This document shows, piece by piece, positions 4,745 through 63,520 of a stretch of DNA of 64,000 nt; within the stretch, counting starts at the first letter, position 1; every line of letters starts with the position of its first letter. The notes beneath the pieces were generated by a model. It searched no databases, was not told the DNA's origin, and saw nothing but the letters and a program-made list of their open reading frames with translations. Source of the DNA: a virus (taxonomy: Duplodnaviria; Heunggongvirae; Uroviricota; Caudoviricetes); the IMG/VR virus record IMGVR_UViG_3300042691_040811. One strand, 5' to 3'. Position numbers and translations under genes: made by a program.

Positions 4745-4780
4745 CCACTGTAGCACTGCTAAGGGTCTTGTCAACCCTTA
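4745..4780 (-). promoter_or_regulatory. conserved phage-type promoter element (family copy)
   Basis: cactgtagcac...agggtcttgtcaaccc: same -10/-35 module as the recurrent attgtagcacc...ggttgNcaacc element. Confidence 0.5.
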
Positions 4781-4804
4781 AGACAATGTGGAGTTTAAGG
4801 AAGC

Positions 4805-5074
4805 TTAAATCACGCCGTTTTTCCAGGGCCGCAACCTGTCCAGCTGACGTTGCATTTCGCAAAACCTCACAAAGTGATGCGCATCACGCATCCAGATAGG
4901 GTCATCAACATCTGTACCTGTGGGTGGTTCTCTGTCGGTGATTTTCCAGTATTCTCCCCAAGTCATAGTGGCATCTGCTACGCCATAGGCAGACTCAGCC
5001 AAAGAGCAACATACTGCCTTGACCTCACCCATGGTGAAACCCACAGCCCTAGCCCTTTCCTCAAGACTTCTCAT
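4805..5074 (-). CDS. hypothetical protein
   Basis: 89-aa minus-strand ORF in co-directional array. Confidence 0.35.
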   Translation of the reverse strand: MRSLEERARAVGFTMGEVKAVCCSLAESAYGVADATMTWGEYWKITDREPPTGTDVDDPIWMRDAHHFVRFCEMQRQLDRLRPWKNGVI

Positions 5075-5176
5075 CTCTTCTAAAATTAGGAAACTTTCCT
5101 TTTAACCAGATGCCAGTAATAATGCCAGCCCCGTACATTACCAGGGCAAAGATCAGCTCTAACGAAAGAATCGAAC

Positions 5177-5398
5177 TCATTGATCTTCGGTCGTAGATGT
5201 GGAGGGCTTAACTCCAGCTTTGAGGAGGAGGGAAGCAATTACGTTGGAAACGGGTTCTTTCAACTCGGGGAATGCCGTAATCAGGTAGAGAAAGACGCAG
5301 ATAAGGGAAATTAGGAAGTTGGGGCTGAGGGCCGCAACGACGAAAAAAGAAGAAATTTTAATCTGTTCGCTCACAGATTGGTTGTTTTCGTTCGACAT
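5177..5398 (-). CDS. small membrane protein (two hydrophobic helices; holin-like topology)
   Basis: 73 aa with hydrophobic stretches SSFFVVAALSPNFLISLICVFLYLITAF; lies next to cell-wall enzyme genes. Confidence 0.4.
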   Translation of the reverse strand: MSNENNQSVSEQIKISSFFVVAALSPNFLISLICVFLYLITAFPELKEPVSNVIASLLLKAGVKPSTSTTEDQ

Positions 5399-5462
5399 TT
5401 TGCTTTTATAGTTGTGTGTAATGGGGAGGGGGCTGCCCTTTTAGAAACAACCCCCGAAGCAA

Positions 5463-6977
5463 TCAGAAGCGGAATGTGGTTTGGACTAAGGCCCCGAAAG
5501 TATCAAGGTTCTTATTAACTTCCCCCATCGGCGCACTGAGGTAGAACACCGCAGGAGTCACGGAGATGTTATCCGTAACTTGGAACTTGTAGTAGGCCTC
5601 AAAGGCGTATTGGCCATCATTGGCACTGTTGCCGTTAATAGAAGTGATGAAAGTGGGCTGACCAAATGCCGCTCCGAGCGCATTGCCTTTTTGGAAAGCA
5701 TCTTGCCAAACCAGCCCCGTATACCACGATTGGGAAGCGGCACTGCCACCGGTTTGATACCCGACTCTATTATAGCCCCATCCTGCCGAAATCGAAGGGA
5801 TCAGCCCGGCTTGCAAGGGTTGCCAGTAACCAGCCAAAGAGAACGAATTGGATTGGCCGCCTGTAAACGAATTAGGCAAGGTTGCTGAAAGGAAATTGGT
5901 GCCCGCTACGGCAACATCATAGTTGGAATAGGTGTAGGCCCCCGTTAGATTCCAGTTTTGCCTACCATAAGAGATCTGGACAGTAGAGGAAGCACCGGAG
6001 TTACCATTAAAAATACCACCTTCTGCGGAGTTGCCTTGATCGCCATTGGCGGCGACATAAGCACCCCCCAAACTAAAACCACCACTATGATACCAAAGAC
6101 CGGCCCCACTTCCCAAAACTTGCGTATAGGTGCCGGGAGCCCCCGCATACTGAAAAACTTGCAAGATGCGGTCTGCCGTATAAACTGATGGCCACACTGG
6201 CAGCGCATCGTCTTGACGGACCTTAGGGCCGAAGACTGCCGTGAAGTTCTCACCAATCGGGAACTTGTAGAACAAACGGTTAATAGTTACGGAGTCGTTG
6301 CCATTCGTATCATTTTCTTGGAATCCAGCAGAGAGCTGGGTGAGAGGGGTGGGGTAAGCTCCGAAACCGCTATTAACGAAGTTGCCAGCCCTTAGCTGAG
6401 TGCGCAGTAGATCCTTGCCCGTAAAGGAGGTGTCAAAATTTAGCTTAACGTCGTAGTTAAACGATACGGCTTCGTCCAGATTGTAGTTGTCCTTAGTGTT
6501 GCCGCCATAGGACAACCCTCCGAGAACCCATGTCGCCTCACCACGCAACTTCGTCGTTGTAGAGAATTGAGTGGCTTCTAGTTGTCCAACCCGGCCTTCC
6601 AACCCATCAACCCTACCTTTAAGGGTTGCCAATTCAACCGCAAATTCATCCATGAGCTTGCTAAGCTCGTCCGTAACCTCAGTCACACGATCAAGGCAAG
6701 CATTGAGCAGAGCGGCAGCTTCGTAACGGGTCATGGCGTTACCGCCACGGAAGGTAGAATCTGGATAACCAGCAACACACCCGTAACGCTCCACAAGATT
6801 GCTAAGGGCTTGATAGGCCCAGTCTGTTGGGCGCACATCTGAGAACTGCGCTACGCTGGTAACTTGCCCTTGGGAGGAATATTGATTGACGGCGTTAAGG
6901 TTAAGGTCAGCGGCACTTGCCGGGGATACCAACCCCAGGGCAATAGCACCAATACCTGCAAAATTTCTAATTTTCAT
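5463..6977 (-). CDS. SLH-domain outer-membrane porin (OprB-like, cyanobacterial type)
   Basis: Signal peptide MKIRNFAGIGAIALGLVSPASA. SLH motif DVRPTDWAYQALSNLVERYGCVAGYPDSTFRGGNAMTRYEAAALL. Coiled-coil linker, Gly/Asn-rich beta-barrel body, C-terminal ...TTFRF (terminal Phe). Confidence 0.85.
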   Translation of the reverse strand: MKIRNFAGIGAIALGLVSPASAADLNLNAVNQYSSQGQVTSVAQFSDVRPTDWAYQALSNLVERYGCVAGYPDSTFRGGNAMTRYEAAALLNACLDRVTEVTDELSKLMDEFAVELATLKGRVDGLEGRVGQLEATQFSTTTKLRGEATWVLGGLSYGGNTKDNYNLDEAVSFNYDVKLNFDTSFTGKDLLRTQLRAGNFVNSGFGAYPTPLTQLSAGFQENDTNGNDSVTINRLFYKFPIGENFTAVFGPKVRQDDALPVWPSVYTADRILQVFQYAGAPGTYTQVLGSGAGLWYHSGGFSLGGAYVAANGDQGNSAEGGIFNGNSGASSTVQISYGRQNWNLTGAYTYSNYDVAVAGTNFLSATLPNSFTGGQSNSFSLAGYWQPLQAGLIPSISAGWGYNRVGYQTGGSAASQSWYTGLVWQDAFQKGNALGAAFGQPTFITSINGNSANDGQYAFEAYYKFQVTDNISVTPAVFYLSAPMGEVNKNLDTFGALVQTTFRF

Positions 6978-62320: not shown

Positions 62321-62436
62321 GGTATATCTACCTTGTTTTACCCCCTATTAGAGACTTTTCTTCCCGCACCATGTCACAAATTAAAAAAAGAAGGGAGCGC
62401 CTATGAGACACCCCCCCTGATAACAACTTTTACAAA

Positions 62437-62784
62437 TTAAAGGCTGGGCCTAATGTAAATAACCTCAGGCACATACCCAAAGAATCCCTGCAGCCAGGGG
62501 CACAACCATACGTCCATACCCGTGAGCTTATCCACATAGTCAGAACCATGTTCATCTGTGCGCACTAGATTGAGTTGCGTAGTTGCCTCAGGGAAATGCT
62601 CCGTAGAAAGGTCAAATCGCATCTTGCTCCCCAGTTGTGGCTTTTGGCCGGTAAGAGCATGGTAGTAGCCATCAATGACAAGTTCGGTGCCATTCAGAAG
62701 GCCCTCAGCCACCGTATTATTATGGTCGTGGTCAAAAGCCCAGATGCCGAAGGCAGTTTTGTAAGGAAAAACAGTGAGTTTCAT
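62437..62784 (-). CDS. hypothetical protein
   Basis: 115 aa. Confidence 0.45.
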   Translation of the reverse strand: MKLTVFPYKTAFGIWAFDHDHNNTVAEGLLNGTELVIDGYYHALTGQKPQLGSKMRFDLSTEHFPEATTQLNLVRTDEHGSDYVDKLTGMDVWLCPWLQGFFGYVPEVIYIRPSL

Positions 62785-62833
62785 TTTGTTTAAGTGTTGT
62801 GGTTTTCTAGCGGGTTTGGTGGGCAGGTTGAAA

Positions 62834-63415
62834 TCAGCAGGGCTTGAAGTATTCTTCCAGAGATTGCCCGATCCGAAACACGATGTTGGAGGTAAGCTCT
62901 ACGACAATACCCTCTTCAGCCTTATCAGGAGACAACCCAAGGCTCTCAGCAACCTTAGCACTAACATGCTCGCAGATAAAGTTTGCGTAGGAGTCGCTAT
63001 CAACTATGGCCTTTACGATGTCGGGGGCCATAGCTTTGGCCATAGCTTCTAAGGCTTCATCGCTCAGTTGCAGTTGTTTGCGAGGGGTTTGAGGGGTGAC
63101 AATTAGGGAGTCGTTTGTGGATTGATCCGAAACATTCGGGTGATGAAGGCCCACTCTCCACTTTCCGATGTTAGAACGGTAAAAGGTATTAATCACTGTG
63201 GTGGCCACAAGGTAACCTTCCGAGTCGGCAAAGCCATACTGAGCATAACTGTCAAGCACACTATAGATTTGTTTTTGAGCCTGTTCAGGTTCCTTGTAAG
63301 ACTTCAGGATGTTAAAAAAGGCTTTATTAATGTGATCCACAACCTCTTGAGGGGTACCCCTGTAGCACTCCCACTCCTGGGCAGACAGCACAAGTTCGTC
63401 ACCGTTGATAATCAT
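62834..63415 (-). CDS. hypothetical protein
   Basis: 193 aa; after promoter 63436-63520. Confidence 0.45.
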   Translation of the reverse strand: MIINGDELVLSAQEWECYRGTPQEVVDHINKAFFNILKSYKEPEQAQKQIYSVLDSYAQYGFADSEGYLVATTVINTFYRSNIGKWRVGLHHPNVSDQSTNDSLIVTPQTPRKQLQLSDEALEAMAKAMAPDIVKAIVDSDSYANFICEHVSAKVAESLGLSPDKAEEGIVVELTSNIVFRIGQSLEEYFKPC

Positions 63416-63435
63416 GGCTCTAGGGCAAACACCCC

Positions 63436-63520
63436 CTTAATGTAGCACCTTGCCCCAGGGTTGTCAACTCCAAGGTTTAAGCCGAGGGCAAGCACCTTGA
63501 GAAGGGGGTGGCAACCCTGA
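63436..63520 (-). promoter_or_regulatory. conserved promoter + upstream half-unit
   Basis: ttaatgtagcacc, gggttgtcaactcc, then gggcaagcaccttgagaagggggtggcaaccc. Confidence 0.55.

Follow-up and report, generated by a model that had tools for sequence, protein, structure and literature searches.

Organisation and distribution of the cassette

The window analysed here, a 64,000-nucleotide stretch of a virus of the Caudoviricetes (IMG/VR record IMGVR_UViG_3300042691_040811), carries ahead of about 20 of its genes a cassette of about 100-110 bp, made up of a promoter, a 5′ RNA hairpin and a leader of fixed length. The genes behind the cassettes are small and mostly ORFans. Some 17 strong copies and 6 weaker ones were found, every one of them intergenic and on the minus strand, that is, in gene sense. 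A search for GCAAGGTGCTACAAT with up to three mismatches gave 22 matches (21 on the minus strand) compared with 1.6 expected, a number attained by none of 100 shuffles, and GGTTGNCAACC with at most one mismatch gave 23 matches compared with 2.8 expected. Full-length matches to a profile HMM of the whole cassette were restricted to the minus strand, the plus-strand matches being only the palindromic core matching itself. The recurrent minus-strand module described in an earlier note on this DNA is thus confirmed. The copies are listed below; each is named by the first T of its TGNTAYAAT in plus-strand numbering, except 59762, which is the first T of the -35.

63413..63524, minus: cassette 63447; TTGACA-17-TGCTACATT; non-canonical leader; ATG 63415; one upstream half-unit, -35 at 63514
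60971..61100, minus: cassette 61023; TTGCCA-17-TGCTACAAT; canonical leader hairpin 61014-60970; ATG 60973; upstream half-unit 61090
60327..60545, minus: cassette 60372; TTGACG-17-TGCTACAAT; non-canonical leader with SD; three upstream 47-bp half-units, -35 cores 60442, 60489, 60535
59692..59772, minus: cassette 59762; TTGCCG-17-TGGTATACT; canonical leader hairpin 59733-59691; outside the RNA-model training set
58252..58320, minus: weak variant 58286; TGCTACAAT; poor -35; no canonical hairpin; ahead of an SH3-domain gene
55361..55510, minus: cassette 55414; TTGTCA-18-TGCTACAAT; leader stem GGGGGCG/CGCCCCC; ATG 55363; one upstream 47-bp half-unit, 55482
54643..54742, minus: cassette 54712; TTGCAA-17-TGCTACAAT; leader hairpin with a G.U pair; longer leader with SD; ATG 54645
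50830..50990, minus: cassette 50880; TTGCCA-18-TGCTACAAT; canonical leader; ATG 50832; upstream half-unit 50955
48637..48790, minus: cassette 48688; canonical leader; ATG 48639; upstream half-unit 48755
48113..48320, minus: cassette 48164; TTGCCA-18-TGCTACAAT; non-canonical leader; ATG 48115; ends the 3-unit 47-bp array 48165-48304, units 2 and 3 identical
46552..46590, minus: weak variant 46580; GGTTGCCACC dyad, CAAGGCAG, TATGAT
42775..42856, minus: cassette 42825; TTGCCA-18-TGGTATAAT; leader hairpin 42816-42774; ATG 42777
42318..42400, minus: variant 42372; GTTACAAT; without a clear -35; leader stem GAGGGGC/GCCUUUC, partly by G.U wobble
40855..40937, minus: cassette 40907; TTGCAA-17-TGCTACAAT; top-scoring canonical leader GGUAAGGCGGCCUGAGGCCGCCACC; ATG 40857
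37398..37481, minus: cassette 37450; TTGACG-18-TGCTACAAT; canonical leader with a G.U pair; ATG 37400
36972..37055, minus: cassette 37024; perfect GGTTGCCAACC dyad; TGCTACAAT; leader with a G.U pair; ATG 36974; DUF7717 gene
36540..36610, minus: weak variant 36570; GGCTACAAT; block A TTGCCCCGG upstream; ahead of tRNA-Leu(caa)
26640..26730, minus: cassette 26700; TTGACG-17-TGCTACAAT; canonical leader, then SD; ATG 49 nt past the -10
24219..24282, minus: cassette 24252; TTGACA-17-TGCTACCAT; no canonical hairpin
23469..23600, minus: cassette 23521; dyad CTCAGGGTTGACAGCCCTGAG; TGTTACAAT; canonical leader; ATG 23471; upstream half-unit 23588
21443..21470, minus: partial copy 21451; GCAAGGTGTTACAAT; without -35 or canonical leader
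7553..7669, minus: cassette 7639; TTGACA-17-TGCTACAAT; different, longer structured leader; ahead of a DPBB/lytic-transglycosylase-like gene
4721..4785, minus: cassette 4755; TTGACA-16-TGCTACAGT; no canonical hairpin; ahead of PRPP-synthetase and NAMPT genes

The rows headed cassette, together with 58286 (weak), are the 19 main copies of the earlier note, all of which are present, and 42372 and 46580 are variants beyond that list. Four further sites had been given as weaker copies; 21451 and 36570 are indeed partial members, and the other two do not belong to the class, 37640 being an ordinary sigma-70-like promoter ahead of tRNA-Arg and 8510 being rejected on the membership check. The rise in density proposed for the 37-64 kb part was also found, with 15 copies there vs 8 in 1-37 kb (about 2.6-fold).

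The predicted promoter half is of the sigma-70 type

The promoter consists of TTGNCA, a spacer of 17-18 bp and the extended -10 TGCTACAAT, a layout close to the sigma-70 consensus. Across the 28 full copies the -35 consensus was T100 T89 G100 N C92 A78 and the extended -10 consensus T100 G100 C89 T100 A100 C89 A92 A89 T100 (percentages), with a spacer of 17 bp in 11 copies and of 18 bp in 16. A generic, independent promoter scanner placed the copies among its best matches, with 10 of the 12 hexamer positions plus the TG. These features and the intergenic placement in gene sense bear out the sigma-70-type promoter class as a prediction, and from its sequence the cassette is a strong predicted promoter of the host primary-sigma type. 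The predicted start site is an invariant G located 7 nt past the -10, and the ATG follows 38-44 nt past the -10 in 38 of the 41 leaders from the window and its relatives. The 'early/middle' timing proposed before may apply, judging from the host type of the promoter and the prevalence of ORFans.

The repeat could instead be a small, selfish mobile element (MITE- or REP-type), or it could be read as a promoter by a phage-encoded RNA polymerase (e.g. N4-like, reading a DNA hairpin). Its palindrome-bearing sequence is common to otherwise unrelated genomes, and a GC hairpin with a loop of 3-5 nt has what we take to be a superficial likeness to the N4 early-promoter hairpins. However, a selfish repeat would be expected in both orientations and inside genes, and the copies are strictly of a single orientation, strictly intergenic and at a fixed distance from the start codon; terminal inverted repeats and target-site duplications are absent, the sigma-70 hexamers, spacing and TG are near perfect, and the window contains no RNA polymerase gene. 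Both origins are thus very improbable.

The leader forms a conserved RNA hairpin

In the canonical class, the fold starts at the invariant G and forms a GC-rich hairpin whose stem of 6-7 bp continues across an AA bulge with G-C and U-A pairs; a short C/A-rich spacer without structure then leads to the AUG. This G is column 7 of the leader alignment and pairs with C31, and in the minimum free energy folds the 5′ end is sequestered. RNAalifold gave a 6-bp stem with compensatory changes in four of the six pairs. In an alignment of 29 leaders, 96% of the cells were paired vs 88% in shuffles, and 12 double changes were counted vs 2.1 in shuffles, none of the 500 shuffles having as many. When the partners were slid by 1-2 columns in this control, pairing fell to 32-42%, and with a slide of 3 columns it was still 68-79%. 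Extension to 41 leaders from at least four genomes (the window and relatives) gave 97.6% of pair cells paired, in an alignment that was fitted to the RNA model and so is biased toward pairing, with 21 compensatory double changes vs 3.9 expected and 14 G.U pairs. Because of these G.U pairs, the structure is favoured in the sense RNA. The leader hairpin proposed earlier is a genuine sense-strand RNA structure with covariation. A TAnnnT lies directly upstream in 41 of 41 leaders, no promoter-free leader hairpin was found even with the search filters off, and the hairpin matched no Rfam family.

The G-rich arm of the stem is always on the 5′ side and a central C-G pair is common to 30 of the 41 copies, so part of the conservation could reflect homogenisation between copies rather than selection. 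In addition, the canonical hairpin is present in 13 of the about 23 window copies; the earlier description of a conserved leader hairpin holds for its structure and not for its presence in every copy. Since about 10 copies are without it, the hairpin is not needed for cassette function.

The function of the hairpin is probably protection of the 5′ end of the mRNA. The fixed distance to the AUG and the conserved flanks GUAAGG and ACCGC exceed the needs of a pure stabiliser and could reflect a translational or protein-binding role, or copy-and-paste ancestry. We considered in particular that hairpin and flanks are the recognition site of an RNA-binding protein, acting as a translational repressor, a nut/boxB-style processive antiterminator or a marker of phage messages. 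The retention of flanks and AUG distance, the invariable 5′ position of the G-rich arm and the fact that the leader is the cassette part most widely conserved across relatives are consistent with such a site. Hairpin-binding proteins mostly read the loop, whereas the loops vary here in sequence and length (UGA, CUGAG, ACA, AAG, CCGAG, AGA) and the stem pairs change with compensation; scans of the window proteins detected no RNA-binding domain, and the missing Rfam match also speaks against this reading. A protein-recognition role is therefore unlikely, and 5′-end protection is retained as the probable function.

Upstream half-units, arrays and the -35 dyad

The upstream module comprises, in order, TTGCCCCGGTG (block A), YTGAGGCTCC, the GGGTTGNCAACCC dyad and GCAAGG, and is specific to the present phage lineage. 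Tandem Repeats Finder recovered the three 47-bp arrays claimed before, at 48165-48304 (3.0 copies, two identical), 55414-55503 (1.9 copies) and 60421-60540 (2.6 copies; four units including the promoter's own). Single extra half-units are likewise present at all five sites (23588, 48755, 50955, 61090 and 63514).

The earlier note read the palindrome over the -35 as an operator and the arrays as extra operators. On this reading, the GGTTGNCAACC dyad would bind a dimeric protein, of the phage or the host, by which early transcription is switched off or timed, with the 47-bp half-units as cooperative extra sites. The GGG/CCC around TTGNCA is kept beyond what sigma needs (C +7 89%, C +9 82%, G -1 100%), and the 13 true upstream half-units keep TTG (13/13), TTGNCA (11/13) and the ACCC...GCAAGG core despite an absent -10 and diverged flanks. 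The array is also kept ahead of one gene in relatives 93% and 78% identical, and in a related contig the gene immediately following one cassette codes for a Cro/C1-type HTH protein. Against this, deviations from the dyad number 44 in the right arm vs 16 in the left, which carries the -35 TTG; the outer arms pair imperfectly, with indels; the -10 and leader occur in two relatives (L107 and L194) that have no dyad; the half-unit count differs among close strains, and sites spaced 47 bp apart face opposite sides of the helix from one unit to the next. Among the 50 window proteins scanned, none showed an HTH or any other DNA-binding domain, and hence there was no candidate regulator. The operator is not established, and we regard it as possible but doubtful.

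There is a sizeable minority chance that half-units and arrays are functionless, multiplied at the cassette's short direct repeats CTTGCC and GCAAGG by unequal crossing-over or replication slippage, the palindrome being the -35 with inherited flanks. The sole large indel relative to strain L196, 93% identical overall, is one half-unit of 45 bp with the direct repeat CTTGCCC on either side; at locus 48688, this strain is without half-unit 48755 and has a different cassette copy in place. The array of cassette 48164 differs in unit number and identity, with three units in the window (two identical), three in L196 (all different) and two in L197. Block A alone is triplicated in L012, and the half-units have no -10. 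However, a neutral view does not predict the TTGNCA...ACCC...GCAAGG core kept in upstream units diverged elsewhere, nor arrays held at one locus across 78-93% identity.

A role at the RNA level, with dyads and arrays as 3′-end stem-loops of the upstream transcripts that would stop or weaken read-through or keep out 3′ exonucleases in the manner of PeSLs, seems improbable. The array folds as serial hairpins, one centred on each dyad (z = -2.2), G.T-type deviations outnumber A.C-type ones (57 vs 25), canonical terminators are few in the region (14 vs 22.6 expected), and the PeSL stem-loops of T4-like phages are effective terminators (PMC2839356, PMC4122927). But the dyads are not followed by a U-tract, the G.T excess comes in large part from the consensus itself or from the fixed -35 TTG, and the stems are short, imperfect and indel-bearing. 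Most simply, the upstream module is a conserved promoter-upstream half iterated by unequal recombination.

Cassettes recombine among related genomes

Related genomes have the cassette in common with the window and few or no genes; with one IMG/VR contig (L010, L012, L104) the overlap is limited to the cassette and a TnpB insertion sequence. In L194, a homology block starts exactly at the -10 of cassette 40907, and for cassettes 23521 and 42372 such a block starts at the ATG that follows. Not all mosaic breakpoints lie at cassettes: none is present where L197 is rearranged around the ligase gene. Recurring along the genome with near-identical sequence over about 100 bp, the cassettes are substrates for homologous recombination and gene conversion. 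These comparisons show cassettes behaving as exchangeable, recombining modules common to otherwise unrelated genomes, a property missed in the earlier note, and the differences in half-unit number between close strains arise by recombination between the cassette's own short repeats.

A proposed standardised expression unit

We propose, with a probability of about 60%, that the cassette is a standardised early-gene expression unit of an uncultured freshwater picocyanobacterial phage, recombining between loci. The host RNA polymerase would fire the cassette promoters right after infection, and transcripts begun at the invariant G would have their 5′ end locked into the hairpin. Pairing of the 5′ terminus guards RNA against RNase E, according to references given in PMC3997798, and the host RNase E transcript goes up during cyanophage infection (PMC3113571). 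Such a flush 5′-terminal hairpin may protect the phage mRNA from 5′-end-dependent decay by RNase E and RNase J, and may also insulate the start-codon region from whichever gene lies downstream. The comparison between genomes shows cassette copies swapping between loci, with 45-47 bp half-units duplicated or lost and ORFan genes reshuffled, just as is seen with the PeSLs of T4-like phages; the cassette would be functionally analogous to these, not a member of their family.

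A repeated cassette on the minus strand of the window

The earlier note had described one promoter and leader module reused in front of many minus-strand genes. This cassette, a unit of about 110 bp made of a sigma-70-type promoter, a leader hairpin and a leader of fixed length before the ATG, proved to be real: the pattern GCAAGGTGCTACAAT (≤3 mismatches) gave 22 matches against 1.6 expected, with 21 of the 22 on the minus strand, and GGTTGNCAACC (≤1 mismatch) gave 23 matches against 2.8 expected. When the window was searched with a profile of the whole cassette, the full-length matches were confined to the minus strand. 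Inspection gave 17 copies that are strong and about 6 that are weaker or partial; the copies are named here by the plus-strand coordinate of the first T of TGNTAYAAT. Their density was, as proposed, higher in the 37-64 kb part (15 copies) than in 1-37 kb (8 copies). Two sites listed as weaker copies were removed, the one at 8510, which is not a member, and the one at 37640, which is an ordinary promoter before a tRNA-Arg. No Pfam family was found in most of the genes predicted to be driven by a cassette, nor in 27 of the 30 neighbouring small genes.

In a stretch of 1.9 kb of the parent contig beyond the window, no further cassettes were present. A 20-base cassette pattern scanned over a genome collection found no match, so that neither host genomes nor prophages gave any sign of the cassette, and a sensitive blastn search of one cassette against 50,697 published phage records also returned none. 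A scan of IMG/VR with a 15-mer gave 103 loci, nearly all of them single chance matches, and one contig that is a true relative.

Promoter architecture

Alignment of 28 full copies from the window and its relatives gave the consensus ccCc.gGgGTTGnCAnCCCt.ggGGCAAGGTGCTACAAT...gGGGTaAGGcGGCc. The promoter elements follow one another in the order TTGNCA, a spacer of 17-18 bp (17 bp in 11 copies and 18 bp in 16) and TGCTACAAT. The elements expected of a sigma-70 promoter with an extended -10 are all present, namely a -35, a spacer within 16-18 bp, the TG and a purine 6-8 nt downstream, and an independent, generic promoter scanner scored cassette copies at 10 of 12 matches plus the TG. From its sequence, the cassette promoter is thus predicted to be of the primary-sigma type, near consensus and with an extended -10. 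The seventh base after TACAAT is a G in all of 29 leaders and is the predicted start site.

A covarying hairpin at the head of the leader

In the canonical leader, G-U pairs with A-C across an AA bulge, and a GC stem of 6-7 bp with a loop of 3-5 nt of variable sequence comes next; the folding energy is -16 to -20 kcal/mol. The pair G7-C31 begins at the predicted +1 of the transcript. The spacer that follows is C/A-rich and unstructured, and in 38 of 41 leaders a distance of 38-44 nt separates the ATG from the -10.

Across 29 curated leaders, 96.1% of pair cells were paired, compared with 88.2% in shuffles, and 12 cells showed a double change against 2.1 expected, a number reached in none of 500 shuffles. 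Pairing fell to 32-42% when the partners were slid by 1-2 columns and was still 68-79% at a slide of 3 columns. A covariance model built from the curated leaders and run with filters off found 13 leaders in the window, all on the minus strand, 3 of which were outside its training set. Over 122 kb comprising the window and the related loci, the same model found 41 leaders with 97.6% of cells paired and 21 double changes against 3.9 expected, in an alignment that is fitted to the model and so biased toward pairing; compensatory changes occurred at 5 of the 8 pairs, and 14 pairs were G.U. Such G.U pairs are A.C mismatches on the opposite strand, which places the structure in the sense RNA. Directly upstream of each of the 41 leaders is a TAnnnT, the -10 being outside the covariance model, and the hairpin never occurs apart from the promoter.

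The leader hairpin proposed in the earlier note is therefore kept as a covarying RNA structure, but its canonical GC form is limited to 13 copies and does not extend to every one. No significant leader structure was obtained for cassettes 63447, 60372, 58286, 24252 and 4755, and the leader of cassette 7639 differs from the canonical one, being longer and structured. The hairpin corresponds to no known family in our searches: over the window, the Rfam gathering score was reached only by tRNAs and a group I intron, and at E≤1 no family matched in 47800-51000, a region with three cassettes.

The missing Shine-Dalgarno (SD) sequence was rejected as a feature specific to the cassette; SD-like motifs precede 1 of 11 leader genes and 14 of 73 other genes, so that they are rare genome-wide and their lack is the genomic norm. 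The leader hairpin and the palindrome over the -35 were also rejected as intrinsic terminators, since neither is followed by a U-tract; terminator-like sites numbered 14 against 22.6 expected, which is no enrichment.

The -35 dyad and the half-unit arrays

The -35 lies in a palindrome, or dyad, whose inner part GGTTG-N-CAACC is conserved, with outer arms that show imperfect pairing and indels. Deviations from the consensus numbered 16 in the left arm, which holds the TTG of the -35, and 44 in the right arm. Deviations of the G.T type outnumbered those of the A.C type (57 and 25), but this excess is largely built into the consensus and the fixed TTG, and it does not settle whether the site acts as RNA or as DNA. 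Folded as RNA, the array gave serial hairpins with a modest z-score of -2.2. In two related loci, L107 and L194, the -10 and the leader are present and the dyad is absent, indicating that the promoter does not need the dyad.

The half-units are about 47 bp long and consist of the -35/palindrome half of the cassette without its -10. Tandem Repeats Finder recovered the arrays that had been reported, at 48165-48304 (3.0 copies), 55414-55503 (1.9 copies) and 60421-60540 (2.6 copies), and the single extra half-units listed with them were also present. Among 13 true upstream half-units, all devoid of a -10, the TTG was found in 13 and TTGNCA in 11, and the ACCC...GCAAGG core was also retained; as this core is kept despite the lack of a -10, an additional constraint is possible. 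The upstream module is GC-rich, with TTGCCCCGGTG ahead of YTGAGGCTCC. We also observed, at about 10385-10430 of the related locus L012 (gene-sense strand), that the first element of the module, block A (TTGCCCCGGTG), is triplicated with a period of 12 bp before a single dyad, and the upstream module thus has sub-units that iterate independently.

Reading the arrays as iterons of a replication origin was rejected, given that they lie at three separate loci with a period of 47 bp and no AT-rich region. Judging by their sequence, the dyad and the arrays may bind a regulator, may form RNA structures or may be tolerated by-products of recombination. No DNA- or RNA-binding domain, HTH included, was detected in 50 window proteins scanned against Pfam, and in a related contig a gene behind one of the cassettes codes for an HTH protein of the Cro/C1 type.

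Genomic setting and probable host

The window is part of a JGI metagenome contig of 117,840 bp; its GC content is 42-51% and nearly all its long ORFs are on the minus strand. Among its products are NAMPT, PRPP synthetase, a tyrosyl-tRNA synthetase (TyrRS), an ATP-dependent DNA ligase, a DNA methylase and a subtilase, together with a TnpB/IS605-type transposase and an SLH-OprB porin. The features used below are the following.

Features of the window
2253-3842, minus strand: NAMPT, second gene of a NAD-salvage pair behind cassette 4755
3773-4723, minus strand: PRPP synthetase, first gene of the same pair
5463-6977, minus strand: SLH-OprB outer-membrane porin, unusual as an auxiliary gene and the chief pointer to the host
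12225-13529: TnpB/IS605-type element, with an ORF at 12300-13445 carrying OrfB_IS605 and Cas12f1-like TNB domains
45748-45990, minus strand: group I catalytic intron (Rfam RF00028, 68 bits), in the region of the ORF 45798-46397

The NAD-salvage pair is driven by the predicted promoter of cassette 4755. The nearest relatives of the porin are those of freshwater Cyanobium, Vulcanococcus and Synechococcus, with 50-62% identity, and for this reason the host is likely a freshwater picocyanobacterium. The window has 14 tRNA genes, ten of them clustered at 32.9-37.6 kb (32882-37600) and the others at 7075, 44409, 45243 and 47709. Several tRNAs are located behind sigma-70-like promoters of their own (37640, 45333 and 47836), outside the cassette family.

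The phage is distant from those described. Against the 50,697 published phage records, megablast gave no DNA match for 20 kb of the window and tblastn no match for a 728-aa window protein, and the TyrRS and the ligase found only distant matches among published phages. No T4-like core genes were seen when these were looked for in the window.

Probable exchange of cassettes between related phages

The true relative from IMG/VR is a 53-kb contig (L010, L012 and L104), recovered also in the metagenome of the window (Ga0315909), in which the cassette occurs at least 12 times. Comparison with the window by blastn and blastp showed only the cassette and the TnpB element in common. The element is 94% identical in DNA between 12225-13529 of the window and 4033-5337 of L104, and such an identity in an otherwise unrelated contig suggests a recent transfer of the insertion sequence between co-occurring phages. 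A 384-aa ORF of the contig, for which a TyrRS identity was rejected, encodes an SprT-like/DUF7168 protein.

Closer relatives permitted the comparison of junctions. The Logan assembly L194 has a TyrRS that shares a 90%-identity cluster with that of the window, and it is a mosaic in which blocks of the window follow one another in another order. One of its homology blocks starts exactly at the -10 of cassette 40907, and two start at the ATGs behind cassettes 23521 and 42372, with another cassette copy in front. This assembly also encodes an EF-Ts-like protein (1641-2237) and a PrlF-antitoxin-like protein (3723-3941), both lacking from the window.

The locus L196 is 93% identical to 46787-49634 of the window, and its single large indel is one half-unit of 45 bp flanked by the direct repeat CTTGCCC. 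The leader of the window at cassette 48688 is replaced in L196 by a copy with a different stem, GGGGGC/GCCCCC, and local identity is 62-75%; the leader of the window is retained at this place in L197, a locus 78% identical. The array at 48.2 kb has three units in the window (two of them identical), three in L196 (all different) and two in L197. The latter also lacks the ATP-dependent DNA ligase gene (49312-50436 of the window) and has two adjoining small genes in reverse order; no cassette was detected at the junctions of this ligase rearrangement, so that some breakpoints are free of cassettes. For the few junctions examined, the cassette swap, the half-unit indel and the block edges are consistent with recombination between copies.

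Discussion

The sequences compared here describe the cassette as a repeated, oriented and intergenic unit, in which a predicted sigma-70-type promoter is joined to a covarying hairpin that begins at an invariant G and to a leader of fixed length. It lies mostly before ORFans, and its distribution is consistent with exchange and iteration between strains and genomes.

The closest described system is that of the PeSLs of T4-like phages (RB49, phi1, PST/T4 and nt-1/KVP40; Arbiol et al. 2010, PMC2839356; Comeau et al. 2014, PMC4122927). PeSLs are composites of about 100 bp made up of a strong sigma-70-like early promoter together with a stem-loop; about 50 are present per genome, mostly before ORFans in hyperplastic regions, where they mediate modular shuffling (PMC2839356, PMC4122927). 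In the cyanophage S-PM2, dense PeSLs were looked for and none were found (PMC4503421). By our comparison, the cassette resembles a PeSL in most respects and departs from it in several features of membership. The two share the composite of about 100 bp with a promoter close to the host sigma-70-like consensus, early in PeSLs and predicted to be so here, and a stable stem-loop, and the tens of copies per genome concentrated among small ORFans and placed directly before genes. PeSL copies also act as points of homologous exchange, leading to indels or replacements between related phages, and the few junctions compared here are consistent with such a role of the cassette. The two differ in the phage lineage, here an uncultured freshwater cyanophage and not a T4-like myovirus, in the upstream region, which is GC-rich here and AT-rich in PeSLs, and in the stem-loop, which in PeSLs precedes the start site and acts as a terminator of transcripts from upstream, whereas the cassette hairpin is downstream of the predicted start, inside its own message and without a U-tract. 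The cassette has in addition a fixed-length leader without SD (an SD-like motif in 1 of 11 leader genes), a promoter half iterated in 47-bp units and no sequence similarity to PeSLs.

The ompA and papA leaders were reportedly described as 5'-terminal stem-loop stabilisers of mRNA by Emory, Bouvet and Belasco (1992; cited in PMC3997798). The cassette is like these E. coli leaders in having a stable hairpin at, or within 1-2 nt of, the 5' end, here a predicted one. It is unlike them in that a dozen or more unrelated genes of one phage genome carry the same hairpin, which is physically tied to one promoter class and whose stabilising role is here predicted. The early promoters of T4 and T5 are also numerous, near-consensus host-sigma promoters with an extended -10 that drive small host-takeover genes; conservation in the cassette, however, reaches from about -60 to the start codon and takes in an RNA hairpin that covaries and an upstream module that can be repeated. 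The stoperators of cluster A mycobacteriophages are many copies of one short repressor site in a single orientation relative to transcription; they are asymmetric sites of 13-14 bp, mostly outside promoters, bound by a known repressor, whereas the repeated core here is the -35 element, with no known binder. Among archaeal viruses, the halovirus HF2 has repeated intergenic elements of about 30-60 bp that proved to be promoters (PMC8707807); this virus uses archaeal promoter architecture, and the abstract mentions neither a leader hairpin nor half-unit arrays.

We propose that the host polymerase would fire the cassette promoters early in infection. The hairpin, flush with the 5' end, would then shield the phage messages from 5'-end-dependent decay, and may insulate the start region from the downstream gene. 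The protective step is inferred because 5'-terminal pairing blocks RNase E (references in PMC3997798) and because the picocyanobacterial RNase E transcript rises during cyanophage infection (PMC3113571); a hairpin placed at the 5' end keeps pyrophosphate from being removed and RNase E or RNase J from attacking in a 5'-end-dependent manner.

A bolder reading, which we consider unlikely, takes the hairpin as a phage-wide tag of early messages and the half-unit arrays as true cis-regulatory arrays. The tag could consist of the flush hairpin, the conserved GUAAGG and ACCGC flanks and the fixed distance to an SD-less AUG, and could be read by a dedicated factor or by the ribosome, so that phage transcripts would be favoured in their stability or translation at a time when host RNase E is up-regulated; its G-rich/C-rich helix resembles an intramolecular SD:anti-SD duplex 11-14 nt upstream of the AUG. 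The arrays could be operators for an ORFan regulator, or sites where RNA polymerase docks and is kept in closed complexes. For docking, the half-units could serve in that they keep the -35 and the TG, the -10 being replaced by a GC-rich sequence that is unmeltable, and their 47-bp period is close to the size of a closed-complex footprint.

What sets the cassette apart most is a 5' hairpin that is locked to its promoter and recurs in at least four genomes, along with the -35 half-units in tandem, the latter being its least ordinary feature. The cassette may be of use as a marker that points to early genes and to transcription units on contigs of uncultured cyanophages, as a natural, compact and apparently context-independent expression part for picocyanobacteria (a predicted strong promoter, a 5' hairpin and an SD-less leader), and as a system for studying how phage messages survive the RNase E surge of cyanophage infection. 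If the proposed picture is true, exchangeable promoter and stem-loop cassettes would not be peculiar to the T4-like phages of proteobacteria, and would represent a convergent solution in an unrelated, deeply novel lineage of freshwater cyanophages.
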